Origin: Candidatus Omnitrophota bacterium
GTDB lineage: Bacteria > Omnitrophota > Gorgyraeia > Gygaellales > Profunditerraquicolaceae
Reading direction: 5' to 3'
Length of the DNA stretch: 64,000 nucleotides
NCBI GenBank assembly: GCA_025453395.1
Contig: JALOQK010000002.1
Location: 21,625-85,624, forward strand
Shown here: positions 2 through 56,679 of the stretch, piece by piece
How positions within the stretch are numbered: position 1 is the stretch's first letter
How the letters are laid out: every line of letters starts with the position of its first letter
Translations under genes and position numbers: made by a program
Notes under the pieces: generated by a model
Seen by the model: only the letters and a program-made list of their open reading frames with translations
Databases searched by the model: none
Told to the model about the DNA's origin: nothing

Positions 2-490
2 AACTATAGAAGCGGGAAAGAGCCAGTTTTTAGCAAGGTTGATGGTTTGTATCGTGAGATACCCACAAAAGACGCCGAAAGCGTTTTAATCAGCTGGACT
101 TTAAGGATTGAGGGGGCAACGGGTTCTTCGGTTAAGCCCGAACAAGAGTCGCGGCTTTGTAGCGGAGCATGGACTGGGACCGTCATGGAAAGTTTTAAAG
201 GAGGGCAGGTCTATTCTAAGGCTTACGTAGCTTACGGCAATAGCAATGATTATCAGCCTATTGGTCAGGATGCGGCAATGACCGTGCCTGATGGTGGATC
301 GGTAACTGTAACCGCTCCGCCTCCTGTTTTTGACCCCACGCATACAGGAAGCTGTACTTTAAAGGTACCTGAAAATACAGATAAGATTAAGGTCCAGATC
401 TATTGGAAGAATGACACGGCTCTTAATATCACCAGTAAAGCGGACTATCAGGATTTGATGGTCACGGTTTTGCCTAAAGGGCATAAATAG
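2..490 (+). CDS. secreted protein of unknown function, paralog A; 5' end cut by window edge
   Basis: Frame-2 ORF runs from the window edge. It aligns residue by residue with the C-terminal two thirds of the 498..1202 product (KVDGL.., TWTLR.EGA.., GGQVYSKAY.AYGNS.NYQP.GQDAAMTVPDGGS, THTGSCTLKVPENTDKIKVQIYWKNDTALNITSKADYQ). Confidence 0.5.
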   Translation, partial: NYRSGKEPVFSKVDGLYREIPTKDAESVLISWTLRIEGATGSSVKPEQESRLCSGAWTGTVMESFKGGQVYSKAYVAYGNSNDYQPIGQDAAMTVPDGGSVTVTAPPPVFDPTHTGSCTLKVPENTDKIKVQIYWKNDTALNITSKADYQDLMVTVLPKGHK

Positions 491-497
491 CGGGGAG

Positions 498-1202
498 GTG
501 TACAATATGAGATTATTGGTTTTGTTAATACTTGCCATATTTTCCTTTTCATCTTTGGTAAAGGCGGCAGAGGAAACTGGCCTTAAGGCTAAGGTAGAGG
601 CTGTTCCGAAGATACTGCAGAAGTCCGGAGCAAGGACTGCTACTTTGAAGGCTTCAAGATGGCCGGATTTCTCTAATTGTAACGGCGAGAGCTCTTGTTG
701 CGATAAACTTAAGGCTATTAAATTTCCAGATAACTATAGAGGCGGGAGAGATCCGGTTTTTAGTAAAGTTGACGGTCTGCATCTTGAAGTGCCCACTAAA
801 AATGCCCAGAGTGTTTTTATAACCTGGACTTTGAGGGTGGAAGGTGCCGGTGAAATAATAAACCCATGGCAGAATATTTGTAGTGCTTGGCATGGCTCGG
901 TTACGGAAAGCTTTAGAGGCGGACAGGTATACTCCAAGGCCTACATAGCTTACGGCAATAGTGATAATTATCAGCCCGTCGGGCAGGATGCGGCAATGAC
1001 TGTGCCAGACGGCGGTTCAGCTGTTTCAAATAATCCGTCTGACCCCACGCATACAGGAAGCTGTACTTTAAAGGTACCTGAAAACACAGATAAGATTAAG
1101 GTCCAGATCTATTGGAAGAATGACACGGCTCTTAATATCACCAGTAAAGCTGACTATCAGAACCTGATGGTCACGGTTTTACCTAAGGGTAGAAATGATT
1201 AG
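498..1202 (+). CDS. secreted protein of unknown function, paralog B, with Sec-type signal peptide
   Basis: N-terminal signal peptide MRLLVLLILAIFSFSSLVKA-AEE. Tandem paralog of the upstream gene. Cys-containing mature domain. Tightly linked to the downstream pseudopilin genes. Confidence 0.55.
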   Translation: MYNMRLLVLLILAIFSFSSLVKAAEETGLKAKVEAVPKILQKSGARTATLKASRWPDFSNCNGESSCCDKLKAIKFPDNYRGGRDPVFSKVDGLHLEVPTKNAQSVFITWTLRVEGAGEIINPWQNICSAWHGSVTESFRGGQVYSKAYIAYGNSDNYQPVGQDAAMTVPDGGSAVSNNPSDPTHTGSCTLKVPENTDKIKVQIYWKNDTALNITSKADYQNLMVTVLPKGRND

Positions 1203-2058
1203 CAGGCCCGTTAGAGAACCGGGGTTATCCGGTTTAGGGATCAAGGGTTTTACCCTTGTTGAGATCATTGTTTCTCTTATTCTGGTCGGCATAGGATTGT
1301 TTCTCTGCACTAAAATCTTTATCGTATCTAAATATCTGAACAAAGAGGCAGAAAACAAGGCCCGGGCCATGGAATTGGTTTCTGCCTTGATTAATGAACG
1401 CCTAGCGCAGTCTTACTTAAGCCTTTCTGGTGACGCTGTGGATAGCTATGACGGCGGTTTCTTCAACTGTACTACTACTATCAATGAGAAGCAAATGCCT
1501 GCCGGGTCTTCCGGAAAAGACGATATACCATATAAAGAGATAGAAGTTATCTGCGGATACCAGGATAAAAACGCTAACGGCCAATCTACTCCTAGGAGCG
1601 TGCGTTTGGTTAATATTGTGCCGTACCCCCGGATGCATTTTTTTAGCGCGGAAGATTCTCCGGGCGTTTTAGTCAGACAGTTTGCCAATTCTACCGTTGC
1701 TAACAAAGACCTTAACGCCAGGATACTTGAATTTAATTTTGACATAGCCGTAAAAAGCGACTATAGTGTTTTCTATAATATAGCAACTGAGTTTGGCGAT
1801 ATAAGCGCAGTGGCAGATACGGACCTTATTTATTCTGCCTGTCTTCTTATAAATAAAAATACAAAAAAGGAACATTGGGCGGATTTGCAGACAGGCACTC
1901 CCATTCGTACACAACCGACTATTAACAGTGCTGTGACTATTGAGAATATCCCCAAGGGTTCTTATATTTTCAGGTTAATCTGGTGGAAGCAATTTGATCG
2001 GGGAGAAATAAGGGCCAAAAGGGTCAATATGGTCATAGAGCAGGTGGAATCGGAATAA
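1195..2058 (+). CDS. type IV pilin-like protein (pseudopilin / minor pilin)
   Basis: Class III signal motif KG-FTLVEIIVSLILVGIGL with Glu at +5 followed by a hydrophobic helix. Its start overlaps the stop of the upstream gene. Confidence 0.65.
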   Translation: MISRPVREPGLSGLGIKGFTLVEIIVSLILVGIGLFLCTKIFIVSKYLNKEAENKARAMELVSALINERLAQSYLSLSGDAVDSYDGGFFNCTTTINEKQMPAGSSGKDDIPYKEIEVICGYQDKNANGQSTPRSVRLVNIVPYPRMHFFSAEDSPGVLVRQFANSTVANKDLNARILEFNFDIAVKSDYSVFYNIATEFGDISAVADTDLIYSACLLINKNTKKEHWADLQTGTPIRTQPTINSAVTIENIPKGSYIFRLIWWKQFDRGEIRAKRVNMVIEQVESE

Positions 2059-2067
2059 TACTAATAT

Positions 2068-2646
2068 ATGAATGTGAAAGCGCTGACTTTAATAGAGCTT
2101 ATAATAACACTTATCATTATAAGCATAGTTATGGTTCTTATATCAGCCAGCCTTTTCTTTTTTATCGCCCAATTTCAGAGCAATGTGGAAAGGAGCCAGC
2201 TTTATGCTCAGATGAATTACGCCATGGAAGATGTAAAGATGCGTTGTCCAAGCGCCATAGATCTGGGAAGCTATTTTGACGTTAGATTCCCTTCGGGCGG
2301 TAACAAGGATACAAAAGACAAGCTTATTTTTTGGGGAGAGAAAGACCAGGCAAATGTTACTCCTGACGATAAATCCGATAACCTGTGGTATAAATATTAT
2401 ATTAATCCATCCGGTGACTTTGTGATCAAGGAGTGCGTAAATTCATCTTGCAACGCGGGATCCGAGGATATATTAATTGATAAAGACTTTCAACCTAAAA
2501 TAGAATTCATTTATGAAAAGGATTCCGCGCCGAATTTTCTTAAAGTTTTATTAACTGCCCAGAATAAGAAACCTGCTTTGGGATCTCAGGCCCAGATTGT
2601 AAAAGAAGCAGGTTTGAGATTCTGGTTTATTGACATAGCCAAATGA
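2068..2646 (+). CDS. pilin-like protein with non-canonical junction (A-LTLIE)
   Basis: N-terminus MNVKALTLIELIITLIIISIV resembles a prepilin but has Ala in place of Gly at -1. Hydrophobic helix follows. Confidence 0.5.
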   Translation: MNVKALTLIELIITLIIISIVMVLISASLFFFIAQFQSNVERSQLYAQMNYAMEDVKMRCPSAIDLGSYFDVRFPSGGNKDTKDKLIFWGEKDQANVTPDDKSDNLWYKYYINPSGDFVIKECVNSSCNAGSEDILIDKDFQPKIEFIYEKDSAPNFLKVLLTAQNKKPALGSQAQIVKEAGLRFWFIDIAK

Positions 2647-2963
2647 TAGCCATAATATCTTCTGTAATTGTTATAATTAGTTCTATTGTGGTCACGCTTG
2701 TAAGTTTTAATCCTAATTTCCACAGTATGATGGAAAATGATTTCAAGCGTTCCGCGTTTAATAATGCATACCTATATAGCTGGGAGATAGCACAGCTTAA
2801 GGTGCGTTCTGGTCAGCTTACAAACACGAAAACCAAGATTAATGACTTGCCGCTTGGCTATTTAACTAAAAAAGGCGGTACTGAAGTGCAGAAATTCAAG
2901 ACCGATATAACCTTAAAGCCTGCCGATGGATCGCTTACTATCATTGTAGAGGAAGACAATTGA
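2643..2963 (+). CDS. small membrane-anchored protein, possibly a minor pseudopilin
   Basis: N-terminal hydrophobic segment IAIISSVIVIISSIVVTLV. Overlaps the upstream stop, so it is operonic with the pseudopilins. No Glu5. Confidence 0.3.
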   Translation: MIAIISSVIVIISSIVVTLVSFNPNFHSMMENDFKRSAFNNAYLYSWEIAQLKVRSGQLTNTKTKINDLPLGYLTKKGGTEVQKFKTDITLKPADGSLTIIVEEDN

Positions 2964-2996
2964 CAAGTCTCGCCTCTTTTCGTATAATAATTTTTC

Positions 2997-3605
2997 ATGA
3001 GAATAAAAGACTGTAAATCTTTGAGTTTGCTTTTGTTAGGTTTTTTCTTGTTGCCTGCATTGTTAACAGCCCAAGAAGCGCCTCAACGCTCTTTAGAGGC
3101 AATAGAGTTTTTTGCGGGTTACGGCTGGAATCAATTAAAGCCTTTCAAAGCTGGAGAACCAAGAAAAGATTACCGCCAAATCCCTTTATTAGCAGATTTT
3201 GATTTCAATCTTAAGAACTTCACCAAGAAAGTGGGGGTTAATCCTCCCGGTTTACTGCAATTTCAGGTTGAGCCATTTTTTTCTTTTGTTACAAGCCCGG
3301 ATAGAAATATAGAAACCGGCACCTCGTTTTTTATAAAAATCGGGATATTGCCCCAAACTTCCCGTATACAACCTTATATCAAAGCCGGGCCCGGTATGGT
3401 TTATATGACCCAGAATACCGCAGAACAGGGTACGAAATTTAATTTTATTGAAACCGGCGCTGCCGGATTTCATTTTTTCATAAATAAAAACACAGCCTTT
3501 AGCGCGGAATACAGGTTTCGCCATCTCTCCAATGCCGGGATAAAAGAACCTAACGGAGGCATTAATTCCCGTTTTGTCTTAGCCGGCGTAACATACCAAT
3601 ATTAA
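2997..3605 (+). CDS. outer-membrane beta-barrel protein, PagL-like lipid A deacylase candidate
   Basis: Signal peptide LLLLGFFLLPALLTAQEA. C-terminal ..EYRFRHLSNAG.. (H-x-S-N-A resembles the PagL catalytic motif). Ends in an aromatic residue (VTYQY), typical of OM barrels. Confidence 0.45.
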   Translation: MRIKDCKSLSLLLLGFFLLPALLTAQEAPQRSLEAIEFFAGYGWNQLKPFKAGEPRKDYRQIPLLADFDFNLKNFTKKVGVNPPGLLQFQVEPFFSFVTSPDRNIETGTSFFIKIGILPQTSRIQPYIKAGPGMVYMTQNTAEQGTKFNFIETGAAGFHFFINKNTAFSAEYRFRHLSNAGIKEPNGGINSRFVLAGVTYQY

Positions 3606-4598: not shown

Positions 4599-4691
4599 TC
4601 AGCTATCAGCTTTCAGCTAAAAGCGTAAAGCTTAAAGCGAAAAACTAAAACTTAAAGCGAAAAATGAAAAGCAAAAACTAAAAGCGAAAAA
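4599..4691. repeat. heptanucleotide-periodic simple repeat (ATCAGCT / AAAAGCG / TAAAGCT units)
   Basis: Sequence reads atcagct atcagct ttcagct aaaagcg taaagct taaagcg aaaaact .. with strict 7-nt phase. Intergenic between dus and the next gene. The same units recur inside recG. Confidence 0.8.
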
Positions 4692-4697
4692 GGAAGA

Positions 4698-5182: not shown

Positions 5183-7321
5183 ATGGAAAATAATCCGCTT
5201 GAGCAGTCTGTCCAGTATCTAAAAGGGGTCGGCCCGGCACGCCTTAAATTGCTGCAGAAAATAGGGGTTAATTCTTTAGAAGACCTTTTGTATTATTTCC
5301 CCCGCCGCTATCAAGACCGCAGGAATTTTATTCCAATAGCAGCTTTAGAGCAAGGCCAAGTTCAGGCAATTAGAGCTAAGATTATTTCTTGTTATCAGCG
5401 CAGTTCTTTTTACCGCCGCGGGTTTAAGATAACTGAAATCGTTGCCGCAGATAAAAGCGGGAAAATTACCTGTGTCTGGTTTAACCAGCCCTACATTAAA
5501 AATTATTTGAAGATCGGCGAGGAAGCTATTTTCTACGGCAGAGTGGGGAGTTTTGGCAAGAAACTGCAGATGCACTCTCCGGAATTTGAAGTCTTATCTG
5601 TTGGCGAAGATGCGCAAGCAAATAGCGACAGCCTTATGCCGGTGTATTCTTTGCCGGATTCTATCACCCAGAGATATTTCCGGGATCTTATAAAATTAGT
5701 GATAGATGCCTATTTGCCAAAGCTGCATGATTTTATTCCTTATAGTATGCGTCAGCGTAATAATTTGTTAAACCTTGCCAAGGCGCTGGTAAGTATTCAT
5801 TTTCCTGCTGATCAAGAGGCGCGGGCCTTAGCCTATCAACGCTTGGCCTTTGATGAATTCCTGTTTTTCCAAATACCGCTGGCTTTAAGAAAACATCGCA
5901 GGAAAGAAGAACAGGGTATCGCCCATAAAACAGAAGGGGGCTTAGTGGATTGTTTCCTGCGCGGGTTAGGTTTTAAGCTAACTTCTTCGCAGGAGCAGGT
6001 TTTAAAAGAGATCAAGAAAGATATGGCCAGCCCTCAAGTTATGCAGCGGCTTTTACAGGGCGATGTTGGTTCAGGCAAGACCGTGGTAGCTACAGCTTCT
6101 TGCCTAATGGCTGTTCAGGGAGGCTTTCAGGCGGCATTTATGGTGCCTACGGAAATCTTGGCGAGACAGCATTATGAGAAAATAAGCTCTCAGCTTTCAG
6201 CTATCAGCCGTCAGCCTTCAGCTATCAGCCGTCAGCCTTCAGCTATCAGCTTTCAGCTAAAAGCAATAAAAGTGGCTTTACTAACTAGTGCGTTGAATAA
6301 GAAAGAAAAAGAGAAAATATATCAAGGCATAAAAAATGGAGCAATAAATTTGGTGATTGGCACGCACGCTTTACTGCAGCAACAGGTTGAATTTAAGAAT
6401 CTGGGGCTGGTGGTTATTGATGAACAGCATAAATTCGGCGTGGGTCAGCGAGCGTTATTGCCGCAAAAAGGAAAAAGCCCGGATATTCTGATCATGACCG
6501 CCACCCCTATCCCGCGGACTTTAGCAATTACCATTTATGGGGATTTGGATGTTTCTGTTATTTCGGAGTTACCTGCGGGCAAGGGCAAGATTAAGACCAT
6601 GAATTTTTCCGTCGGGCAAGAAAAAGCGGCCTATAGTTTGGCTAAAAAAGAGCTTGAGGCAGGCCGTCAGGCGTATATTATTTATCCGGTTATTGAAGAG
6701 TCTTATGCTTTGGATATGGAGGGCGCCAAGAAAAAATACGCGCAATTAAGTTCCGGAGATTTTAAACAATACCGCTTAGGGCTTATCCATGGCAGGCTTG
6801 ATGACAAACAGCAGAATCAATTGATGCAGGATTTCCGGGATAAGAAATTAGACATTCTTGTTTCTACCACTATTCTGGAAGTCGGGATTGATATCCCCAA
6901 TGCTACCTGTATAATCATTGAGAATGCCGAACGTTTTGGCTTGTCGCAGTTACATCAATTGCGGGGGCGGGTAGGAAGAGGCAAAGATGACGCCTATTGT
7001 TTATTGATTGCCAATACTTCTACTGTTGAAGCCAAGGCGCGCATGGAGGCAATGGTAAATTATAGCGATGGTTTTCATATTTCCGAGGAAGATTTAAGAA
7101 TCCGGGGGCCGGGTGAATTCTTCGGCATGCGCCAGCATGGCCTAAGCCAGCTTAAGATCGCCAATCCTCTGACCCAGATGCAGCTTTTAAAGAAGGCGCG
7201 TGATGAGGCACTGCGTTTGATTAATGACGATGCGGGGCTTGTTGCCAAAGACAATGTCTTGATCAGGCAGCGTTTATTCAAGGCCTTTCCGGAATATGAA
7301 AATTTAATACTCACGGGATAA
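5183..7321 (+). CDS. recG: ATP-dependent DNA helicase RecG
   Basis: Wedge domain, Walker A GDVGSGKT, DEQHKFGV, and QLHQLRGRVGRG helicase motif VI. Carries an in-frame repeat-derived insert at 6181..6262. Confidence 0.9.
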   Translation: MENNPLEQSVQYLKGVGPARLKLLQKIGVNSLEDLLYYFPRRYQDRRNFIPIAALEQGQVQAIRAKIISCYQRSSFYRRGFKITEIVAADKSGKITCVWFNQPYIKNYLKIGEEAIFYGRVGSFGKKLQMHSPEFEVLSVGEDAQANSDSLMPVYSLPDSITQRYFRDLIKLVIDAYLPKLHDFIPYSMRQRNNLLNLAKALVSIHFPADQEARALAYQRLAFDEFLFFQIPLALRKHRRKEEQGIAHKTEGGLVDCFLRGLGFKLTSSQEQVLKEIKKDMASPQVMQRLLQGDVGSGKTVVATASCLMAVQGGFQAAFMVPTEILARQHYEKISSQLSAISRQPSAISRQPSAISFQLKAIKVALLTSALNKKEKEKIYQGIKNGAINLVIGTHALLQQQVEFKNLGLVVIDEQHKFGVGQRALLPQKGKSPDILIMTATPIPRTLAITIYGDLDVSVISELPAGKGKIKTMNFSVGQEKAAYSLAKKELEAGRQAYIIYPVIEESYALDMEGAKKKYAQLSSGDFKQYRLGLIHGRLDDKQQNQLMQDFRDKKLDILVSTTILEVGIDIPNATCIIIENAERFGLSQLHQLRGRVGRGKDDAYCLLIANTSTVEAKARMEAMVNYSDGFHISEEDLRIRGPGEFFGMRQHGLSQLKIANPLTQMQLLKKARDEALRLINDDAGLVAKDNVLIRQRLFKAFPEYENLILTG
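6181..6262 (+). repeat. heptanucleotide repeat array embedded in frame in recG
   Basis: Sequence cagcttt cagctat cagccgt cagcctt cagctat cagccgt cagcctt cagctat cagcttt cagctaa, encoding ..SQLSAISRQPSAISRQPSAISFQLKA.. The 21-nt (3-unit) block is duplicated. The terminal agctatcagctttcagctaaaagc is identical to the intergenic element at 4599. Confidence 0.85.
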
Positions 7322-7879: not shown

Positions 7880-7960
7880 GGTTACATGGGGTTAATTGAG
7901 GTTGCCTTTGCAACGTCATGTAACATCATTTAACATCATGCAACTTCAGATAACCTATAT
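7855..7960. repeat. palindromic element built from ~10-bp GGTTACATGA-type units (family B, copy 1)
   Basis: Left arm gttaaatgag gttacataag gttacatggg gttaattgag gttgcc, then its approximate reverse complement tgcaacgtca tgtaacatca tttaacatca tgcaacttca. Confidence 0.75.
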
Positions 7961-10084: not shown

Positions 10085-10116
10085 CCCGCGCATAATCAAG
10101 TTATCCCGGAGAGAAA

Positions 10117-12820: not shown

Positions 12821-12850
12821 ACATAAGGACAATATAAAGGAGGAACCAGA

Positions 12851-13087: not shown

Positions 13088-13112
13088 CGTGTAGATAATA
13101 ACAAAAAATAAT

Positions 13113-13151
13113 GTTACCCCGCCTTTATTTATCATGGCGGGGTAACTTTTG
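13113..13151 (+). terminator. rho-independent terminator candidate after acpP
   Basis: Perfect 11-bp stem gttaccccgcc / ggcggggtaac, 12-nt loop, followed by tttt. Confidence 0.6.
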
Positions 13152-13178
13152 TAAGGTTAAAAGGGGCAAAAAAAGATT

Positions 13179-47375: not shown

Positions 47376-47564
47376 ATGCCAAGACTTATAGACATTGATG
47401 AGTTAGCAGAATATCTGAAATTAAAGAAGCAGACGATTTATAATTGGCTGCACGAAAGAAAGATTTCAGGTATTAAGGTTGGCGGGGTCTGGAGATTTGA
47501 CCGCCGCGAGGTAGACGCCTGGCTTAGGAGCAGACGGCGTTTATCTACAACAGGAGATAAATAA
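47376..47564 (+). CDS. helix-turn-helix DNA-binding protein (excisionase/MerR-like HTH_17 family)
   Basis: LIDIDELAEYLKLKKQTIYNWLHERKISGIKVGGVWRFDRREVDAWL. Its stop overlaps the pilM start. Confidence 0.6.
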   Translation: MPRLIDIDELAEYLKLKKQTIYNWLHERKISGIKVGGVWRFDRREVDAWLRSRRRLSTTGDK

Positions 47565-49108
47565 TGGCCAATTCATTAGGGATTTATTTTGGCACAAGCC
47601 TTATAGCTTTAATAGAGGTAAAAGGGAAAAAGATCATTAAACAGATCAATATCCCACGCGCGCTTATTTCCGGGAAAGATCTGGAAGAAAAGGTCCCCGA
47701 AGAAGTTAAGATCGTGGCTTTCTTAAAAGAAGAATTACGCCGCAACAAAATTGAAGCCAAAGAAGCGATTATGTCATTGTCTGGGCAAGATATGATAATC
47801 CGCACCTTTGAAACGCCCGTTCTTCCTGCTGGTGAACTTGCCAGCGTGGTTAATTTTGAAGTCAAGAAGTACATCCCCTTTAAGACTGAAGATCTGGTAT
47901 CGGATTTTCAGGTCAAATTTGACCGCGCCAACCGCAAGAACAATGTATTATATACAGGCATTAAAAAAGAATCTTTGAATAAATACTTGGCGGTGGTGGA
48001 GCAGCTGGGGTTAAAGCTTATTAATATTGAATATGGGGGTTTTAGCCTCTTAAGGTTCATGCGCCTGACTAATCTTATGCAAAAAGGGATAGTAGGCGTA
48101 TTGAGCATGGATTTTTCTGAAGATGAAGAGATTAATTTCACGGTTGTCGAGGATGGATTCCCGCTTTTTAGCAGGGATATTACTCTTTCGTCGGTTAGCG
48201 AGGACTTGACCAGAAAAACTGAAATGTCCATGCCGCAGATAATAGAGAAATTAAAGACAGAGATCAGGATTTCTCTGGATTATTATAACCGGAAATTTCA
48301 GTCACGCAAAATCCAGAAGATGCTTTTCTTGTGCAATGATGAACAGCGGCATGATCTGGAACTATTGCTTAAAGAGATGCTTGTCCCGGCTGTTTTTGTG
48401 GACAGCCATAGGTATATCGGAAAGGCCAGGCATTACAGCTTAAGTTTTATAAAATGTTATGGCACCGCGATCATGAAATGCATCAAGGACAATATTAAGG
48501 TAAATATAATCTCGGCTAAGTCCAAGGCTTTTACGCAGAAAGAAAGAGAAATTGAAGATCAACTTGATTTCGGCGCGTTCTTCAGCGATTTTCAGGTTGA
48601 CCCAAAGTTTATCGCAATAGGCGTATTAGCTTGTTTGGGGATTTGGGGCTTGGGGCAATACCAGCAGTTTCCCGTAAGGCATGACCTTGATACGGTGATC
48701 TCTTTGAGGCCTCAGTTACCCAGTGTGGGCCCAAGCGCCACTTTGCAGAGTTTAGTTGATATGGAGCAGGAGAGCAAAAATAAAATTAATGCTTTGCACA
48801 AAGCAGTGATGCAGCAGCTATATCTTACGGATACCCTGGATGTCCTGCCGCGGCTTATCCCGGATGATATAATGCTTACGCGCATAAATTACAGAAAAGG
48901 TGAAAATAGCACAGAAGTAAACATTGACGGGATTGTTTTCTTAGGCGATAGCGACAAAGAGCGCAAGGAAGTTAACGCCTTTTTGGCAGCCTTAAAGCAG
49001 GATCCGTCTTTGAGCAGGGTTTTTAAGGAAATGTCTATTACCTATATAGACCATGCTACAATGGAAAAGGCCGAAGTCACAAAATTTAATCTTTTATTAA
49101 AAGGTTAG
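47564..49108 (+). CDS. pilM: type IV pilus assembly PilM-PilN fusion protein
   Basis: N-terminal actin-like ATPase fold pattern of PilM (~340 aa). Then TM helix FIAIGVLACLGIWGLGQY and a ~150-aa periplasmic PilN-like tail. Confidence 0.65.
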   Translation: MANSLGIYFGTSLIALIEVKGKKIIKQINIPRALISGKDLEEKVPEEVKIVAFLKEELRRNKIEAKEAIMSLSGQDMIIRTFETPVLPAGELASVVNFEVKKYIPFKTEDLVSDFQVKFDRANRKNNVLYTGIKKESLNKYLAVVEQLGLKLINIEYGGFSLLRFMRLTNLMQKGIVGVLSMDFSEDEEINFTVVEDGFPLFSRDITLSSVSEDLTRKTEMSMPQIIEKLKTEIRISLDYYNRKFQSRKIQKMLFLCNDEQRHDLELLLKEMLVPAVFVDSHRYIGKARHYSLSFIKCYGTAIMKCIKDNIKVNIISAKSKAFTQKEREIEDQLDFGAFFSDFQVDPKFIAIGVLACLGIWGLGQYQQFPVRHDLDTVISLRPQLPSVGPSATLQSLVDMEQESKNKINALHKAVMQQLYLTDTLDVLPRLIPDDIMLTRINYRKGENSTEVNIDGIVFLGDSDKERKEVNAFLAALKQDPSLSRVFKEMSITYIDHATMEKAEVTKFNLLLKG

Positions 49109-49121
49109 AACAGAGGGTTTT

Positions 49122-49643
49122 ATGCCGGTAAAAGATGCAAGCAAATATAAAGATTACCTGATCAATATAGTGGTTTTGGCTATTGCCGCGATTATTGGTT
49201 TTAAAATTTATATAAAGAGCAATCAGGATATAGATGCTTTAAAGAAAAGCATTGAAGAAGAAAAAAGCAAGAATAAGGTGCTGGCAAGCCTTGAGGAAAA
49301 AGAAAAAGAAATAAACGCCTACCGCAAATATCTTAATAGCAAAGAGATCACCGGCATTCTGGATGTTATTGGCGATATCGCGCGGGAGTCGGATATTGAG
49401 ATTGATTCTATGCGTCCTTCAGGAGAAAACAAATACTCTTTTTTCAAGAAATACTTATTTGATATAAGATGCTCCGCAGGCAGCTACCATGATATTGCCA
49501 GATTCATAAGCTATCTTGAGAGCAATAAAAATGTCTTTACGGTAGAAAGCGTGTCTTTAAGCCCCGAAGGATCAGGCGTGCAAAGACGGGTGGGTAGGGT
49601 TTTTGTGGAGATTTCCTTAAGCACAATTGTTTTGGTAAATTAA
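49122..49643 (+). CDS. pilO: PilO-like inner-membrane pilus alignment protein
   Basis: TM LINIVVLAIAAIIGF, a coiled-coil KKSIEEEKSKNKVLASLEEKEKE, then a ~100-aa periplasmic domain. Position is after pilMN. Confidence 0.5.
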   Translation: MPVKDASKYKDYLINIVVLAIAAIIGFKIYIKSNQDIDALKKSIEEEKSKNKVLASLEEKEKEINAYRKYLNSKEITGILDVIGDIARESDIEIDSMRPSGENKYSFFKKYLFDIRCSAGSYHDIARFISYLESNKNVFTVESVSLSPEGSGVQRRVGRVFVEISLSTIVLVN

Positions 49644-49653
49644 AGGTTAAGAT

Positions 49654-50154
49654 ATGGGAAAATATCCGGTCAAATTAAATTTTATAAATGAAATTATATT
49701 ATTTTGCATAATTTTGGGGATAGGTTCCACTGTTTTTGCCAATACTACTTCTAACACTATGAAGAAACTTATTGAAGGCGACGAAGAAAAAGAGGAAAAG
49801 GCCTATGATGTTAAGCGGCCGGCGGCTGAATATAAAGCTGCCAATTATAGAGATCCTTTCAGATTACAGCGCCAGGAGAAAGAAGAAACTAAAGAAACAA
49901 AGAAATACCAGGAGGAAGAGATAATCCCTCCGGATTTAGTCATACAGGGCGTGGTTTGGGGGGCCGCTACTCCGCAGGCGATAGTTAATGATAAAGTAGT
50001 CAAAAAAGGCGACATTATACAGGATGCGCATATTTTGGATATTACAAAAGAGGGTATAGATATTTTCTATCAGGGGGCACAGTTTCATATTTCCGCTCCG
50101 GCATCCGGAAGCGGCATATCCAAAAAGAAAAAAGAGGGAGGCACAAATGAATAA
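49654..50154 (+). CDS. pilP: PilP-like periplasmic/lipoprotein component
   Basis: Signal/anchor ILFCIILGIGSTVFA. Size and position between pilO and the secretin. Weak sequence evidence. Confidence 0.4.
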   Translation: MGKYPVKLNFINEIILFCIILGIGSTVFANTTSNTMKKLIEGDEEKEEKAYDVKRPAAEYKAANYRDPFRLQRQEKEETKETKKYQEEEIIPPDLVIQGVVWGAATPQAIVNDKVVKKGDIIQDAHILDITKEGIDIFYQGAQFHISAPASGSGISKKKKEGGTNE

Positions 50155-51649
50155 CCGCCGGAAATCATATATAAGCTTATTTTTTATCCTCGCGCTTATT
50201 TTCGCGCCTTCGGGGTTAAACGCGCAAATGGATATCCCGTTTGACAATCCTAATATTTTTATCTCCATGGATTTCCAGAATGCCTCTTTAAAAGATATTC
50301 TAAAGATTTTCTCTGTGCAGTCCGGGCTTAATTTTATCGCCTCGGAAAACGTGCAAGACAGAAAAGTGACCCTTTATATGGATAAGGTTGGGGTTAAAGA
50401 CGCCATGGATAAGATTTTTACCGCTAATAATCTTGTTTATGAGCTGGACAGGGAATCCAATATTTTTATCGTCAAGGACCTGGGAAAGCCCAAGACTGAA
50501 ACCGAAACCAAGGTTTTTCCGCTTAAATATGCCACGGTTTCAGGGTCAGCTTTTAACCGCGAAAAAAGCAGTGTTTCTACTACGGCAGGGGCAGCCGCAG
50601 GAGGATCTTCAGGCATTGCCGCGGCGGTAGCCAAGATAGTTACTGAGAATGGTTCAGTTATGGAAGATATCCGCACCAACAGCATTATTGTTACGGATGT
50701 GCCTAAGAATATGCCCAATATTATTCAGCTTGTGAATGCCCTGGATGTTTCAGTGCCGCAGGTGCTTTTGGAAGTGGAGATGTTGGACGTGAATAAAAAC
50801 TTGAGCGAAGCTTTGGGTGTAAAATACGGGCAGTCGCCCATGACTTTAAACGCGCTTTTTAAAGGCGGGACATTTCTCTCTAAATTTCCTTCAGGCAGCC
50901 CGTTCGGCACCGGGCAGAAAACTGGTTTTGGGTCTTTTGAAGTAAATAGCGGCAATGATGGCTCTGATATTAGCACTTATCAGGTGGTCTTAGATTTTCT
51001 AAAATCCCAGACCGATACTAAATTTCTTGCGCGGCCTAAGATCTTGACTTTAGACAATGAAACCGCGGAAATAAAGATCTCTACCCAGGAATCTGTGGGC
51101 ATTATTAATTCTACTACTAATACCGGCAATAGCTCCACAAGCACTACTACCAAAGAAGCGGAAAGATATGAAACCGGCGTAATCTTGAGGGTAACTCCAC
51201 AGGTCAACTTTAAAACCGGTGAAATTACCATGTTTGTTAATCCTAAGGTAAGCGAGGCTATTGCCGGCAATAGCATAACCGAAGGTAATACTGTTTATAC
51301 TTACCGCGACCCGGAAGAAAGAAGCACTAAATCTGTAGTCAGGATCCAAGATGGAGAAACCGTAGTTTTGGGAGGGCTTATCCGTAAAGAAAAAACAGAA
51401 ACTATCACTAAGCTGCCGTTTTTAGGGGATATTCCGGTTTTAGGGGCTTTGTTCCGCCATAAAAATATTTCCAAGGACAAGGAAAGAGAACTGCTTGTTT
51501 TTATCACTCCACACATCGTTAAAGACGCAAGCACCCAGCTTGCCAACGCGCAAGTTAAGCAAACCGGCTCTGCGTTAGGGGCCCCTGGCAATAAACGCGA
51601 GGCGATTATTACCGCAAGCCTGAATGCCTTTGAAAAGAAGAAAAGGTGA
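50147..51649 (+). CDS. pilQ: secretin (PilQ/GspD family), compact form
   Basis: Signal peptide, N0/N1-like domains, and secretin C-domain motifs VVLGGLIRKEKTETITKLPFLGDIPVLGALFRHK ..LLVFITPHIV. No AMIN domains. Confidence 0.8.
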   Translation: MNNRRKSYISLFFILALIFAPSGLNAQMDIPFDNPNIFISMDFQNASLKDILKIFSVQSGLNFIASENVQDRKVTLYMDKVGVKDAMDKIFTANNLVYELDRESNIFIVKDLGKPKTETETKVFPLKYATVSGSAFNREKSSVSTTAGAAAGGSSGIAAAVAKIVTENGSVMEDIRTNSIIVTDVPKNMPNIIQLVNALDVSVPQVLLEVEMLDVNKNLSEALGVKYGQSPMTLNALFKGGTFLSKFPSGSPFGTGQKTGFGSFEVNSGNDGSDISTYQVVLDFLKSQTDTKFLARPKILTLDNETAEIKISTQESVGIINSTTNTGNSSTSTTTKEAERYETGVILRVTPQVNFKTGEITMFVNPKVSEAIAGNSITEGNTVYTYRDPEERSTKSVVRIQDGETVVLGGLIRKEKTETITKLPFLGDIPVLGALFRHKNISKDKERELLVFITPHIVKDASTQLANAQVKQTGSALGAPGNKREAIITASLNAFEKKKR

Positions 51650-53394
51650 TCCCTGCTAAAATAAACAGTATGCCCAAAGAAAAATATTTAAGGTTAGGCG
51701 AGCTTCTGGTTAAAGAGGGCCTGATTACTCCTGCCCAGCTTGAGAAGATCATTATTATCCAGCGGCAGGAGGGCGGGCGCATGGGGGAACTTTTGATCCG
51801 CGAAGGCATGATCAAAGAAGAGCAGTTTGTGGTGGTTTTGGGCAAGCAGTTAGGCATACCTTTTTTTACCTTTGGTACCGGGATGTTAAAGCCGTCGGTC
51901 GATCAGGGGCTTGAAAGGCTTATCTCGCAGGATTTTGCTTTAAAAAACCTGGTTATCCCGCTTTCGCGCACGCTTAATTCTCTAAGTGTAGCTATGGTTG
52001 ACCCGCTGGATCTAATCTTAATAGACAATCTTAAAAAGCTTACCGGATGTGACATCAATCCGGTAATTGCCACTCGTTCTGATATTTTAAAATCAATAGA
52101 AGAATTCTATGGCAAGACCGGGATGTTAAACCGCGCGGTTCAGGATACTTATGATGACCAGTCCCAAGATAATAGGGTGAACACAATTGACCTTGCGGAT
52201 GAAGAATTAAGCTTAGATAAATTAGTTGCCCGCGCTGAAGAGGCGCCAGTTGTAAAGCTGGTGGATTTGATTATTCGTCAGGCCATAGATGAGCGCGCAT
52301 CGGATATTCATATTGAGCCGTTTAAGGACAGGATTTCCCTTCGTTATCGCATTGACGGCAAGCTCTATGAAATCCCCCCTCCGGCAAAATACCTGCACTT
52401 GCCGATCATCTCGCGTATTAAAATATTAAGTAAAATGGATATTGCCGAGAAAAGATTGCCGCAAGACGGCACGTTTCTGGTAAAAATGGAGGACAGGGTT
52501 GTAGATCTAAGAATTTCTACAATTCCTACTATCTACGGAGAAAAGATTGTTTTAAGAATCCTGGACCGAGGCTCTGTAGTTCTGGATTTAAATGTTTTAG
52601 GTATGGACGCCAAACAGCTGGAGGCGGTGCGCGCAGCTGCCGCTATGCCCTATGGCCTGATTTTTCTTACCGGCCCCACTGGAAGCGGCAAGACCACAAC
52701 GCTCTACGCGCTTTTAAACGAAATCAAAAGCCCCTCCAAGAATATAATCACTATTGAAGACCCGGTTGAGTATAAAATAGAGGGCATAAATCAAGTGCAG
52801 GTAAAGCCGGAAATCGGCTTAAATTTCGCAAACGCGCTTCGCTCTTTTCTAAGGCAGGACCCGGATATCATGCTGGTGGGCGAGGTGCGCGATTTAGAGA
52901 CCGCGCAGATTTGTATCCGCTCGGCATTAACCGGGCACTTGGTTTTAAGCACCCTTCACACCAATGACGCGCCTTCAGCAGTAAGCCGGCTTATGGACAT
53001 CGGGATTGAGTCGTATCTTTTGGCGCCGTCTCTTCTTTTAATCGTCGCCCAAAGGCTTATCCGCAGGCTCTGTCCGGACTGTAAAGAAGCTTATGAGCCT
53101 ACCCCGGAGCAGGTTAAGAAATTTAAGCTTACCGCCGAGCTTATTTATAAGCCAAGAGGCTGTTCCAAGTGCGCTCAAATCGGCTACAAGGGCAGGATAT
53201 CTGTGGCAGAGGTAATGAATACCAATGATGAATTAAAAACTTTGATTAATGAAGGGGTCCCCTATCAGAAGATCCGCGATGCCGCTAAAAAAGCCGGCAT
53301 GCAGACTTTGTATGATTCCGCGATCAAGAAAGTGGAGATGGGGCTTACTTCTTTGGAAGAGGCGCTTTCAGTTGCTATTGCCGCTGACTACTAG
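51646..53394 (+). CDS. pilB: type IV pilus / type II secretion assembly ATPase (PilB/GspE family)
   Basis: N-terminal T2SSE_N-like domain (LGELLVKEGLITPAQLEKIIIIQ..). Walker A GPTGSGKTTT, VGEVRD, and a tetracysteine motif CPDC..CSKC. Confidence 0.85.
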   Translation: MIPAKINSMPKEKYLRLGELLVKEGLITPAQLEKIIIIQRQEGGRMGELLIREGMIKEEQFVVVLGKQLGIPFFTFGTGMLKPSVDQGLERLISQDFALKNLVIPLSRTLNSLSVAMVDPLDLILIDNLKKLTGCDINPVIATRSDILKSIEEFYGKTGMLNRAVQDTYDDQSQDNRVNTIDLADEELSLDKLVARAEEAPVVKLVDLIIRQAIDERASDIHIEPFKDRISLRYRIDGKLYEIPPPAKYLHLPIISRIKILSKMDIAEKRLPQDGTFLVKMEDRVVDLRISTIPTIYGEKIVLRILDRGSVVLDLNVLGMDAKQLEAVRAAAAMPYGLIFLTGPTGSGKTTTLYALLNEIKSPSKNIITIEDPVEYKIEGINQVQVKPEIGLNFANALRSFLRQDPDIMLVGEVRDLETAQICIRSALTGHLVLSTLHTNDAPSAVSRLMDIGIESYLLAPSLLLIVAQRLIRRLCPDCKEAYEPTPEQVKKFKLTAELIYKPRGCSKCAQIGYKGRISVAEVMNTNDELKTLINEGVPYQKIRDAAKKAGMQTLYDSAIKKVEMGLTSLEEALSVAIAADY

Positions 53395-53411
53395 AATAAA
53401 AGGAATAAATT

Positions 53412-54650
53412 ATGGCAAAATTTTTCTATACTGTGCGCGATTCAAGAGGGGTAAAGCATAGCGGCACTGAAGAAGGCACCAATGAGGAAGATGTAGTAAG
53501 CCGGCTTCAGGCAAAAGGTTTTCTAGTGGTAGGCCTTGTGCATGAAAGCAAGCAATCTGCCGCAGGGTTGCAGGCGGATAAAACTCCTACAAGTAGAGGT
53601 AAGTTTAAGCATTACGGGGTTTCAGGCGATGACTTGGTGCTTTTTTGCCGGCAGTTGGCCACGCTTTTAGGAGCAGGCGTAACTATTCTAAAAAGTGTTG
53701 ATATAATTTGCCTGCAGATTTCAAGCCGGGGTTTATATAAAGTATTGAAAAAGGTTTCTTCGGATATGCAGGCAGGTTTAAGCCTGCACGAAGCGCTCTC
53801 TCGGCATCCGCAGGTTTTTTCTGAACTTTGGGTTAACCTGGTAGAAAGTGGAGAGGCAAGCGGTAACTTGGCAATGGTGCTTTCGCGTTTGGCAGGATAC
53901 CTTGAAAGAAACGCCGCCTTTAGAAGAAGGATAATCTCCGCTCTTCTGTATCCTATTATTCTTATGGTTGCCGGCTTAGGCGCGCTATTATTTCTAACCC
54001 TTAAAATAATCCCCACTTTCGCCGAGTTGTTTAAGGGGTTTAATGTGGAGCTTCCTTTTCTTACTAAGGTCCTTATATCTTTTAGTGAAGGCCTGCGGCA
54101 TAGTTTCCTATTTATTATCGTCGTAGCTGTATTAGGCGGGTATCTTTTAAGAAAATACCTCAAAACCAGAAAAGGCCGCAGGCAGTATGAAGAGCTTCTT
54201 TTTAAATCTCCGATTTTCGGGGATTTTATCAAGGGGCTGGTGGTGGAGCGGTTTTCTTCAGAGATGTCAACGCTTGTGGAAAGCGGAGTGCCGATACTTT
54301 ATTCGCTTGAAATTGCCGAGCATAGCGTGGGCAACTTAGTTATGGCGGATATTATCCATCAAATTAAAGAAGATGTCAGAGACGGCAAGCCTTTAAGTTA
54401 TCCTCTTGAGAAAAGTAATTTCTTTGAGCCGATGGTGATTCAAATGGTGGCTATCGGAGAAGAAATAGGAGAACTGCCGCAGATGTTCAAGAAAATAAAT
54501 CTTTTTTACCAGGAATATGTGGAGACATTCTTGACCCGTTTTGCTTCTATGTTTGAGCCGATCATGCTTATTGTGATGGGGGTGATTATCGGGGTTATTG
54601 TTATCGGGATGTTCTTGCCAATATTTAGCATAAGCAGGATTGGCGGGTAA
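53412..54650 (+). CDS. pilC: platform protein PilC/GspF
   Basis: Two GspF repeats and three TM segments. Position is after the ATPase. Confidence 0.85.
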   Translation: MAKFFYTVRDSRGVKHSGTEEGTNEEDVVSRLQAKGFLVVGLVHESKQSAAGLQADKTPTSRGKFKHYGVSGDDLVLFCRQLATLLGAGVTILKSVDIICLQISSRGLYKVLKKVSSDMQAGLSLHEALSRHPQVFSELWVNLVESGEASGNLAMVLSRLAGYLERNAAFRRRIISALLYPIILMVAGLGALLFLTLKIIPTFAELFKGFNVELPFLTKVLISFSEGLRHSFLFIIVVAVLGGYLLRKYLKTRKGRRQYEELLFKSPIFGDFIKGLVVERFSSEMSTLVESGVPILYSLEIAEHSVGNLVMADIIHQIKEDVRDGKPLSYPLEKSNFFEPMVIQMVAIGEEIGELPQMFKKINLFYQEYVETFLTRFASMFEPIMLIVMGVIIGVIVIGMFLPIFSISRIGG

Positions 54651-54672
54651 AGGTAAAAGGTTAATTAAGGTA

Positions 54673-54700
54673 TTGACAACAAAGAATTTAAGGTTAAAAT
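54673..54700 (+). promoter_or_regulatory. sigma70-like promoter ahead of the pilin genes
   Basis: TTGACA, 16-nt spacer, TAAAAT. An additional gttataat lies downstream. Ribosome-binding site aaggag. Confidence 0.5.
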
Positions 54701-54755
54701 ATATTTTAGGTAAACGTTATAATAAAATAGAAATTAACATAAGAAAGGAGTAGTT

Positions 54756-55169
54756 ATGAAAAAAGGTTTTACGCTGTTGGAATTAATTGTAGTTATCATC
54801 ATCATCGGGGTTTTGGCAACATTGGGGTTTGTGCAGTATGTTAATATGATTGAAAAAGGCAGAAGAGCTGAAGCGCGCACGAATTTGGGTATGTTGCGTA
54901 CTTTGCAGATGGCTTATCATCAGGAGCATAGTACTGCCTACGCGGCAATAGGTGATTTGCAATCTGGTTTACCTGCTGCAACCGGTACTGGCGATCACAC
55001 TTGTACTAATGCTAATTTCTATTTTGAATATTTTTGTGATGCTACTGGTGGCACTGTTCCTGGTACCTGTTATGCAATGAGATGTGCCTCGGGCGGTAAG
55101 GATCCTGTAACTGGCACTACTTCTGTAATTTCGCTTAGTGTAGATGGAGCAGGTGGAAACGATTGGTAA
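54756..55169 (+). CDS. type IV pilin (candidate major pilin)
   Basis: MKKG-FTLLELIVVIIIIGVLA canonical class III signal with Glu5. 137 aa. Four C-terminal Cys (disulfide-bonded region). Confidence 0.75.
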   Translation: MKKGFTLLELIVVIIIIGVLATLGFVQYVNMIEKGRRAEARTNLGMLRTLQMAYHQEHSTAYAAIGDLQSGLPAATGTGDHTCTNANFYFEYFCDATGGTVPGTCYAMRCASGGKDPVTGTTSVISLSVDGAGGNDW

Positions 55170-55176
55170 TCAATGG

Positions 55177-55596
55177 ATGAGTATGAAATCGCGTGGTTAC
55201 ACGCTACTTGAAATCGTCATAGTGGTTGTGATTGTGGGGATTTTGGTAAGCTTAGGTTTGGTTAATTACACCAATGTCCGGGAAAGGGCTCTGGGCAAAG
55301 AGGCAAGGGCGACCTTGAAGCTTATTGCCGCGGCAGAGAGAATCTACCGTATGGAAACAGGGCTGTATCTTATTCCAGGAAATGCTGTTCCAGCTAGGGC
55401 AGCTAATGATTTAGCTTACATTAATAGTATGCTAAAGCTTGCCATCCCTCAATCAAACAACGCTTGGGGATATAGTATTACTTCAACTACTAATCCTGCT
55501 ATTTCTGAATTTGACGCGCAGGCCGCAAGAGCAGCGTGCACCTATAAGATGACTCAAGGTGATGATGAACCCAGTGATTCGGGGACATGTTATTAA
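55177..55596 (+). CDS. type IV pilin-like protein with G-YTLLE junction
   Basis: MSMKSRG-YTLLEIVIVVVIVGILV with Tyr at +1. C-terminal Cys pair. A terminator hairpin follows. Confidence 0.65.
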   Translation: MSMKSRGYTLLEIVIVVVIVGILVSLGLVNYTNVRERALGKEARATLKLIAAAERIYRMETGLYLIPGNAVPARAANDLAYINSMLKLAIPQSNNAWGYSITSTTNPAISEFDAQAARAACTYKMTQGDDEPSDSGTCY

Positions 55597-55618
55597 AGTT
55601 TTGTTAGTTTAAACAAAT

Positions 55619-55654
55619 AAAGGGGGTATCGTAAGATGCCCCCTTTATTATTAT
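55619..55654 (+). terminator. terminator-like hairpin after the second pilin gene
   Basis: aaaggggg tatcgtaagat cccccttt followed by attattat. Confidence 0.5.
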
Positions 55655-55666
55655 GGGTAGAATTAT

Positions 55667-56026
55667 ATGAAGAATAAAGCCATGACCTTACTTGAAATCT
55701 TAATCGCGGTTTTGATTATCGCCATTACCGTCGGAGGGCTGGTTGCTGTTTTTGTAAGTTCCCGCGGGTTCATAGAGCATTCCCGTTCCCGTTTGCAGGC
55801 AGCGCAGTTATCCAAATACTATATTGATCAATTACATGGGTTTGTGCGCCAGGATTCATGGAATACCGCAAGTAACCAGCTATATGATGGAGCTGCTCCT
55901 TCCTATTCAACAACTTTTTCCGGGGTAACATATAATGTGACTTCTGTAGTGGACGCTGTTGATCCCGTAAATCCGGGAGGGTTGCGCCGGGTAGTCACAA
56001 AAATAAAGTGGACAGAGCCAAAATGA
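55667..56026 (+). CDS. minor pilin-like protein (A-MTLLE junction)
   Basis: MKNKA-MTLLEILIAVLIIAITVGGLVAV with Glu5 present but Ala at -1 and Met at +1. Confidence 0.55.
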   Translation: MKNKAMTLLEILIAVLIIAITVGGLVAVFVSSRGFIEHSRSRLQAAQLSKYYIDQLHGFVRQDSWNTASNQLYDGAAPSYSTTFSGVTYNVTSVVDAVDPVNPGGLRRVVTKIKWTEPK

Positions 56027-56679
56027 AGATTAACCCTAATAGGTCAGTTACTCTTTTGGAATTATTGATGAGCCTGCTTATCATGAGTATTGTTTTAGCC
56101 GCCTTAACAAGTATCAATACTTTTATTAATCACAACGCTTTATCCAGTGACAGAAGATCTAAGCTGCAGAATGAAGTATCTTATACTTTAGAGCATATGA
56201 CTAAAGAAATAGGCAAGGCGCGGGGCAATGAGGTTGCTTCTGGCGCGGGCAAGGTTTTAGCAATTACGGCAAGCGCTTCTGCAGGGGGGCAAGTAATAAG
56301 GTTTTTAGCTAATGATAATGATTATGCTGTTCCGGGAAACTGGGCAGCGTATCTTTACATTCCTCAGGGTTATCCAAATAGTTATCAAATACGTTATTGT
56401 GAGAAGTGCGCTGATACGGATTGTAATTCTTGCAGTTTTCCTGCTTCCTGGGCAGCTTTACCTGCTAATTACATTATCGCCCGGAAGGTAAAAGTATTTG
56501 TGCCTGATAAGCCGATGATAAATGACCCTTCTGATCAACGTTTGAATCAAAATTATTTTAGCGTTAGGATTACTTCTTGTTGGGATCCGGCGCTTGCTTC
56601 TCCGCCTGACGGCACATCGGAAAATCCCTGCATTACCATGGAAACCCGCATGAAGATGCCCTCGGTTTCTACCCATTAG
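56023..56679 (+). CDS. minor pilin-like protein (S-VTLLE junction)
   Basis: MKINPNRS-VTLLELLMSLLIMSIVLAAL. ATGA start/stop overlap with the upstream gene. Several Cys in the C-terminal domain. Confidence 0.55.
   Translation: MKINPNRSVTLLELLMSLLIMSIVLAALTSINTFINHNALSSDRRSKLQNEVSYTLEHMTKEIGKARGNEVASGAGKVLAITASASAGGQVIRFLANDNDYAVPGNWAAYLYIPQGYPNSYQIRYCEKCADTDCNSCSFPASWAALPANYIIARKVKVFVPDKPMINDPSDQRLNQNYFSVRITSCWDPALASPPDGTSENPCITMETRMKMPSVSTH

Follow-up and report, generated by a model that had tools for sequence, protein, structure and literature searches.

We analyzed a 64,000-nucleotide stretch of DNA (the window) from contig JALOQK010000002.1 of a Candidatus Omnitrophota bacterium, at the left edge of which two tandem copies of a gene for a small secreted protein are followed directly by genes for pilin-like proteins. 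We call this secreted protein family SEC, with SEC-A (P0002) as the first copy and SEC-B (P0001) as the second. SEC genes lie within a fixed six-gene pilin cassette in every independent locus that we surveyed, and their product is predicted to be a jelly roll of the TNF/C1q-like type. We favor the view, with a probability of roughly 0.55, that SEC is a non-pilin partner of a minor-pilin tip complex, in which it serves as adhesin or lectin. For the Omnitrophota, which are uncultured and for the most part ultra-small, the cassette provides concrete candidates for the recognition module of their pili.

The window begins inside SEC-A. The 3′ part of this gene (489 nt, + strand, 2..490) is a frame that is open at the window edge and encodes 162 visible amino acids, which match the SEC profile hidden Markov model (HMM) with an E of 4e-64. 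SEC-B (231 aa) lies on the + strand at 507..1202. Its open reading frame (ORF) spans 498..1202, and we place the start at ATG 507, which gives 231 aa instead of 234, has a GGAGG 8 nt upstream, and is the same start as in the public gene call. The public contig L001 covers the window, is identical to it where the two overlap, and has window position 1 at its position 10225. On L001, full SEC-A is 237 aa long (10001-10714) with its start 224 nt upstream of the window. The pair has locus tags MUF05_01205/01210 in the Candidatus Omnitrophica metagenome-assembled genome (MAG). By BLASTP, visible SEC-A and SEC-B are 75% identical over 161 aa (E 5e-88), and the full proteins are 78% identical over 230 aa. 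Thus, the first-pass annotation was correct in calling two paralogous + strand genes, the first of them cut by the window edge. It also described the C-terminal ~140 aa as nearly identical and the N-terminal regions as diverged, and this is not what we observe. The DNA of signal-peptide codons 1-20 is 100% identical between the two genes, a 3′-proximal stretch of ~150 nt (331-480 vs 1040-1189) is 95% identical, and the middle of the genes is 63-82% identical, with no special divergence in the N-terminal 80 aa. This mosaic suggests gene conversion at both ends of the genes.

The rates of nonsynonymous and synonymous substitution between the two copies are dN 0.125 and dS 0.757, and from the resulting dN/dS of 0.165 we conclude that both copies have been maintained under purifying selection. 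The amino-acid differences and indels that do separate SEC-A from SEC-B cluster at residues 113-127 and 171-178, both of which are loops in the structural model described below. An assembly artifact as the source of the duplication was ruled out, since the copies have diverged to a dS of 0.76 and four other MAG lineages also have tandem pairs.

To place the pair in a wider context, we ran HMMs for six families over all ORFs of 20 loci, 18 of which are independent. In 18/18 independent loci, as far as the contigs reach, the same-strand gene order is PIL152-CYS522-SEC-PP287-PP192-TM106. PIL152 is a small pilin, CYS522 is a Cys-rich exported protein, PP287 and PP192 are pilin-like proteins, and TM106 is a 106-aa membrane protein. 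Across loci, CYS522 is 413-546 aa, SEC is present in one or two copies, PP287 is 268-315 aa, PP192 is ~190 aa, and TM106 is ~110 aa. The genes are tightly packed: intergenic gaps run from -25 nt to some tens of nt, start and stop codons overlap at several junctions, and PP192 and TM106 overlap by 4 nt in 13 loci. The flanks of the cassette vary between loci, and therefore the six genes are a conserved unit. SEC was seen only within this cassette in the 18 loci, so the pilus linkage first proposed for the window genes is strongly supported. In three loci (L008, L009, and L018), a homologue of the PilM-N fusion lies ~1.5 kb downstream of the cassette (E 5e-25, 8e-19, and 2e-29, respectively), so that in other lineages there is a physical link between cassette and assembly machine. 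Only in L001, L005, and L006 is the cassette preceded by two extra small pilins. Locus L019 has a second, partial cassette (a PP287 fragment, PP192, and TM106) at 15196-16304, 3.6 kb downstream of its first, with several extra pilin-like ORFs between the two at 11616-15144.

A profile built from 11 SEC homologues was searched against 1.84 billion representative proteins, and 144 relatives were found at E < 1e-3, 72 of them at E < 1e-30. Every one of the 144 is a single-domain protein of 69-367 aa. A scan with one genome per species gave 15 SEC loci, of which 13 are labeled Omnitrophota or 'Candidatus Undivivens' (an Omnitrophota genus), one is labeled 'bacterium', and one is labeled Planctomycetales. 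In a neighbor-joining tree, the SEC copies of the Planctomycetales-labeled locus group with those of L012, L015, and L016, which are labeled Omnitrophota or 'Candidatus Undivivens'. As far as these searches reached, the cassette thus appears to be restricted to Omnitrophota.

The first-pass description of the two proteins as ~230-aa, Sec-secreted, Cys-containing, and beta-rich agrees with what we find. They are 237 and 231 aa long, have five Cys each, are almost entirely beta in the AlphaFold2 (AF2) model, and have Sec-type N-termini with a MRLLVLLILAIFSFSSLVKA/AEE cleavage point, no lipobox, and no pilin motif. Signal peptides here and throughout were assigned by rule, from reading the N-termini. 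Of the 127 full-length SEC representatives, 112 begin with a signal-peptide-like segment, and no pilin motif occurs in any of the 127. In the same set C64 is present in 99% and C125 in 97%, and further residues conserved across the family are W107, R110, P167, D179-P180-T181, G184, W203, and N205. In SEC-B, the signal peptide (1-20) is followed by an N-terminal elaboration at ~30-80 and a jelly roll at ~86-226.

The AF2 model of SEC, made from an 11-sequence alignment, is a sandwich built of beta-strands throughout, with a short elaboration at its N-terminus (pLDDT 82.5, pTM 0.76). When this model was compared with the PDB by Foldseek, the best compact matches were the TNF-like lectins BC2L-C-Nt and PLTL (probability 1.0, E 4e-5 to 4e-4), with target TM-scores (TMt) of 0.65-0.70 for BC2L-C-Nt, of which 2wq4 has a TMt of 0.68-0.70 and a root-mean-square deviation of 3.6-4.4 Å, and TMt of 0.69-0.70 for PLTL (9ib7/9ib9). 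The C-terminal domain of Chlamydia Pgp3 and the TNF-family ligands EDA, RANKL, and 4-1BBL came next. Phage receptor-binding or tail-tip proteins (PM2 P1, lambda gpJ, and T1) had the best E-values and low TM-scores, the latter because these targets are large multidomain proteins. Matches in BFVD were collagen/C1q-type heads and tail fibers. To our knowledge, nearly all of these structural matches form trimers. Identity to the structural matches is 8-12% throughout, and therefore the predicted TNF/C1q-like jelly roll is an assignment at the level of fold and not of family membership. The prediction is nonetheless of the kind of fold used by trimeric lectins and receptor-binding heads, which is consistent with the adhesin role suggested at the outset. 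No known enzyme family emerged that would have spoken against the link to pili: full SEC-B belongs to no Pfam or NCBIfam family, and matches to PDB sequences were no better than E 0.28. We dismissed as noise both the PDB matches of the SEC profile to PL7 alginate lyases at that E-value and a sub-threshold Cadherin-like Pfam match of truncated SEC-A (E 0.012).

The history of SEC copies was examined in a neighbor-joining tree of 23 sequences, in which tandem pairs group by lineage. The pairs of L001, L006, and L014 are each of separate origin, and those of L013 and L019 share one origin, which indicates that tandem duplication occurred independently at least four times. In L012 (8733-9008), L015 (8085-8293), and L016 (2439-2721), the spacer between SEC and PP287 holds a relic of a second SEC copy encoding its C-terminal 55-77 aa (tblastn E 1e-9 to 1e-17), and therefore copies have been lost as well as gained. 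L014, which is related to the relic loci, still has two copies with 91% identity. Across the family, the core strands are conserved and indels are concentrated in the loops at 61-80, 91-100, 111-130, 171-180, and 191-200. Duplication and loss combined with indel-rich loops would be typical of an exposed recognition protein.

Directly after SEC-B, and starting 8 nt before its stop, is the gene for PP287 (287 aa, + strand, 1195..2058), which has an 18-aa leader and the motif IKG/FTLVE. PP287 scores 18.4 bits with TIGR02532 (cutoff 16.3) and 20.2 bits with Pfam N_methyl, just below the cutoff of 21.2. Homologues carry a precomputed PF07963 match, the L005 PP287 scores 26.2 bits, and NCBI gives P0154 the name 'GspH family'. 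PP192 (192 aa, + strand, 2068..2646) starts MNVKA/LTLIE, with Ala at -1 and Glu5 present, and scores 16.9 bits with TIGR02532 and 20.0 bits with Pfam N_methyl (again just below the cutoff of 21.2). PP192 homologues are present in every complete locus. The public Joint Genome Institute call for PP192 starts 63 nt late (window 2068-2130, L001 12292-12354), giving a 171-aa protein that has lost the A/LTLIE motif; homologues in all other loci retain the longer N-terminus. The last cassette gene encodes TM106 (106 aa, + strand, 2643..2963), whose start overlaps the PP192 stop in an ATGA and which has an N-terminal hydrophobic helix, MIAIISSVIVIISSIVVTL. It starts MIAIISSVIV, with neither a leader peptide nor Glu5, so it is not a prepilin by these features, and neither Pfam nor NCBIfam gave a match for it. 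Among the three downstream genes initially called pilin-like, then, the G-FTLVE gene that overlaps SEC-B and the A-LTLIE gene do carry prepilin motifs above the TIGR02532 cutoff and the third does not. TM106 resembles a mature pilin helix in hydrophobicity only and may be the equivalent of GspK/PilX. At NCBIfam cutoffs, none of the cassette pilin-like proteins is assigned to PilV or GspG/H, and the PilW, PilX, and GspI-K models gave no match at all.

The AF2 model of PP287 is of moderate confidence (pLDDT 74, pTM 0.56) and shows a long N-terminal helix spanning residues 21-70, then a beta-sheet of the pilin type (83-152), and a further beta-sandwich at the C-terminus (176-284). This second domain has weak jelly-roll matches by Foldseek to BC2L-C-Nt (TMt 0.49-0.54), PLTL, ExsF/BxpB, and CBM6/22, with E ~1e-3. 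SEC 141-224 aligns to PP287 212-284 strand for strand and in the same register with small and large profiles, at hhalign E-values of 0.037-0.044 and a probability of ~1%. With hmmsearch, the top real score of SEC against PP287 was 10.6 bits and the top shuffled score was 8.0 bits, so the match is barely above the controls. SEC against the C-terminal domain of CYS522 gave an hhalign E of 0.13. We regard these alignments as a hint that SEC and the PP287 C-terminal domain could share an ancestor, which is a lead and not a result.

The assembly machinery recognized earlier ~45 kb downstream is indeed present on the + strand at 47564..56679, where genes for a PilM-PilN fusion, PilO, a 166-aa ORF, a secretin, a PilB/GspE ATPase, a PilC/GspF platform protein, and four pilin-like proteins (at 54756, 55144, 55667, and 56008) are found. 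PilM and PilN are joined in one 514-aa protein with a GspL-like architecture, and the ATPase has an N-terminal MshEN domain, which binds cyclic di-GMP. No prepilin peptidase or PilT was found among the window ORFs examined, a few smaller ORFs not having been checked against Pfam. This machinery presumably assembles the cassette pilins.

In the model that we favor, SEC would be exported by Sec, its signal peptide would be cleaved, and it would fold in the periplasm, where a C64-C125 disulfide would stabilize a jelly roll that probably trimerizes. SEC would then dock on a complex of the cassette pilin-like proteins that primes filament assembly on the PilMN/O-platform-ATPase machine, and it would pass the secretin on the tip of the filament. 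At the tip, its variable loops would attach to a ligand, probably a glycan, exposed on the surface of a substrate or of a host cell, and tandem duplication with loop divergence would widen or change this specificity. The model builds on features described above: the two copies are paralogous, carry export signals as assigned by rule, are strictly linked to the cassette genes, have a predicted TNF/C1q-like fold, are under purifying selection, and belong to a family in which duplication recurs. The cassette is in these respects a candidate recognition module, being strictly conserved and having two orphan exported proteins, one of which, SEC, combines a lectin/receptor-binding fold with duplication and loop change.

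Several points weigh against this model. We infer trimerization, docking on the minor pilins, location at the tip, and ligand binding, and the choice between a tip-associated adhesin and a secreted substrate is likewise one that we infer. The fold comes from a model based on 11 aligned sequences with 8-12% identity to every structural match, and jelly rolls are found in enzymes and carbohydrate-binding modules (CBMs) too. The four pilin-like genes in the machinery locus mean that the cassette is not obviously required for priming. The machinery is also not classifiable as either a type IVa pilus (T4aP) or a type II secretion system (T2SS), since the ATPase scores 607 bits as PilB and 592 as GspE, both below cutoffs. 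Given these scores, the fusion of PilM and PilN as in GspL, and that no PilT was seen in the window, the machine might be a non-retractile pseudopilus by which SEC is secreted.

The last point leads to the strongest of the alternatives, which we nevertheless think unlikely, that SEC, and perhaps CYS522 too, is cargo: after folding in the periplasm it would be pushed through the secretin by the cassette pseudopilins, as happens in a T2SS or to TcpF in the Vibrio TCP system, and set free as a soluble TNF-like lectin or effector acting on other cells. The T2SS leaning of the machinery (the GspL-like fusion, one D-E-F-G...-like block, a GspE score nearly equal to that of PilB, and no PilT in the window) fits this proposal, as does the occurrence of the same fold in the secreted soluble proteins Chlamydia Pgp3, BC2L-C, and PLTL. 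It is also established that tcpF and cofJ, genes for secreted proteins that depend on type IVb pili (T4bP), sit within pilus operons. However, a position fixed between pseudopilin genes throughout a phylum is rare for T2SS substrates, and the spacing of SEC and the next pilin gene, which overlap by 8 nt in the window and by 4 nt in L006 and are separated by gaps of 3-12 nt in several loci, suggests stoichiometric co-production. Secretion is moreover compatible with a place at the tip, as CofJ is both secreted and tip-bound.

A more elaborate version of the tip adhesin, which we consider quite unlikely, is a pilin-tethered heterotrimeric TNF/C1q-like head in which one protomer would be the C-terminal jelly roll of PP287 and the other two would be soluble SEC chains. 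The two SEC chains would differ in genomes with a tandem duplication, and the head, analogous to a phage tail-fiber knob, would serve as a host-recognition device of ultra-small, host-dependent Omnitrophota.

We find it improbable that SEC is instead a periplasmic assembly or alignment factor, similar to PilP, GspC, or a pilotin, that is never exposed at the surface. An exported, beta-rich protein that is strictly co-inherited with pilin genes could be such a factor, but SEC has no lipobox or membrane anchor, its gene is with the pilins and not with the machine, and the PilP position in the machinery locus is already taken by the 166-aa ORF. Fast loop divergence, indel-rich loops, and repeated duplication and loss would also be unusual for a core part. 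Finally, the idea that SEC is an unrelated jelly-roll polysaccharide lyase or CBM whose adjacency to pilins is incidental has very little to recommend it. The fold is common to lyases and CBMs, but the PL7 matches at E 0.28 are not significant, no lyases are among the top 50 Foldseek matches, and synteny holds in 18/18 loci despite SEC identities of 27-31% between deep Omnitrophota lineages and the window protein.

Extension of the contig upstream recovered complete SEC-A preceded by three pilin genes and CYS522. The operon therefore begins outside the window. Its first four + strand genes lie at L001 6948-9981 and encode a 150-aa pilin (KKG/FTLIE; Pfam N_methyl and ComP_DUS above cutoff), a 132-aa pilin (KA/FSLIE), the 152-aa pilin PIL152 (KA/VTLLE), and the 522-aa Cys-rich CYS522, whose signal peptide looks cleavable and for which Pfam, NCBIfam, and PDB gave no match. 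A promoter-like site (11/12 match) precedes the first pilin at L001 6867-6895, and a strong hairpin with a T-run follows the second at L001 7842-7873. The position of this hairpin suggests that the first two pilins may be abundantly expressed, i.e., major, pilins.

At the other end, a perfect sigma-70 consensus (TTGACA-17-TATAAT, + strand, 2960..2988, L001 13184-13212) lies between TM106 and a PagL gene (2997..3605; Pfam E 9e-20), 9 nt upstream of the PagL start. This promoter likely marks the 3′ boundary of the pilin operon and probably gives PagL a promoter of its own. A PagL-like gene does follow the small membrane protein, as first annotated. We rejected it as a cassette member because of this perfect promoter and because the gene after TM106 varies between loci, being in others an AsnC-type regulator, an HU-like gene, BatD, or likely LipA (read from N-terminal sequence). 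PagL is followed in the window by Dus, BatD, and RecG. A mobile-element or phage origin was also rejected, as the neighbors are housekeeping genes and the downstream BatD-RecG-...-PlsX-FabH synteny is common to the distant locus L003.

Over the 64 kb, all ORFs with an assigned function are on the + strand and GC skew is positive throughout. Housekeeping blocks include fatty-acid, arginine, and lysine biosynthesis, L13/S9, UvrA, and RecA, and a tRNA is found beyond the machinery locus at 56959-57031. At 19129-22592, AT skew dips sharply (-0.25) and GC is lower (0.40) over a 534-aa ORF without a Pfam match and the gene for a DUF2079 membrane protein. Intergenic elements at 7855-7960, 30093-30199, and 38645-38830 have ~10-nt GGTTACATGA-like units on one arm and the complement on the other. 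Two of the three were folded and form long imperfect hairpins (minimum free energy -33.3 and -48.7 kcal/mol, z -5.3 and -5.8), and the third was seen as repeat rows only; these elements may be terminators or belong to a repeat family specific to this genome. Many short tandem arrays whose period is 7 nt (AGCTTTC, AAAGCGA, AGCTGTA, TCAGCTG, GCTGATA, and other units) are found at 4615-4695, 6185-6259, 27861-27905, 28837-28869, 32913-32946, 33124-33156, 41995-42070, 56840-56881, and 59435-59484. At least five are in spacers between ORFs and three are inside ORFs, including the array at 6185-6259 within recG, which encodes repeated SAISRQP peptides.

Minor pilins with exported partners are already known as a type of system. 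PilY1/PilC are Sec-exported non-pilin proteins whose genes belong to minor-pilin operons and which sit on the tip of T4aP. In the fimU-pilVWXY1E operon and its counterparts in Pseudomonas, Neisseria, and Myxococcus, a gene for such a protein sits among minor-pilin genes, as SEC does, the minor pilins and the non-pilin protein form a priming/tip complex, and the non-pilin protein is the adhesin. The minor-pilin member without Glu5 in that system is of the PilX/GspK class, and here TM106 lacks Glu5. In contrast, PilY1/PilC are ~1000 aa or more with a C-terminal beta-propeller, whereas SEC is 231-237 aa with a predicted jelly roll, has no PilY1/PilC Pfam match, and shares its cassette with a second exported non-pilin protein, CYS522, which has no Pfam match either.

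The second comparison is with CofJ-CofB of enterotoxigenic Escherichia coli CFA/III and TcpF-TcpB of the toxin-coregulated pilus of Vibrio cholerae, where the pilus operon has, next to the gene for a large minor pilin, one for a small protein exported by Sec. The minor pilin carries an additional beta-sandwich or lectin-type domain at its C-terminus, and the soluble protein depends on the pilus for export. CofJ binds the trimer of the minor pilin CofB at the T4bP tip. The PP287 model resembles CofB/TcpB in having a pilin domain plus an extra beta-sandwich. The machinery differs, as it is T4a/T2SS-like with PilM/N/O and a PilB/GspE-type ATPase and not a T4bP; CofJ and TcpF are absent from the top 50 structural matches of SEC, and no sequence similarity to them was detected.

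At the level of fold, the best compact matches, BC2L-C-Nt from Burkholderia cenocepacia and PLTL from Photorhabdus laumondii, are secreted bacterial jelly rolls as SEC is predicted to be. They share 10-12% identity with SEC and, unlike SEC, are not linked to pili, and SEC has an additional N-terminal segment of ~60 aa tied to the core by the conserved disulfide. The PM2 spike P1, the C-terminal domain of lambda gpJ, the T1 tail tip, and the C1q/collagen heads of giant viruses are of the same fold class and were among the top Foldseek matches by E-value. They offer an analogy, i.e., a jelly roll at the end of a filament that recognizes a cell-surface receptor, but SEC is chromosomal, lies among housekeeping genes with no phage genes nearby, and has no sequence similarity to them. 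The Verru_Chthon cassette proteins A-D (TIGR02596/TIGR02599 etc.) of the Planctomycetes-Verrucomicrobia-Chlamydiae (PVC) group are likewise a lineage-specific cassette with prepilin motifs from the same superphylum. Two of our cassette proteins match Verru_Chthon models C and D weakly, over the N-terminal helix only, at 18-20 bits against cutoffs of 70-256, and we know of no SEC or CYS522 equivalent in the Verru_Chthon cassette.

Seymour et al. (2023, PMC10066038) report that almost all Omnitrophota have T4a pili and propose that these serve to attach the cells to hosts or prey. Neither that study nor a 2026 complete-genome preprint mentions the cassette or a TNF-like partner, and a search of the available literature found no paper joining 'minor pilin' and 'TNF-like'. 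The present results do not overturn the current understanding of type IV filaments. What is new is the set of components: a predicted TNF/C1q-like partner, a Cys-rich partner of ~450-520 aa, a helix protein that lacks both leader and Glu5, and a large pilin with an additional sandwich domain. Their restriction to Omnitrophota, within the reach of our searches, is new as well. If the tip-adhesin model is true, SEC would be a third structural solution for a non-pilin tip partner, beside the beta-propeller of PilY1 and the CofJ/TcpF proteins.

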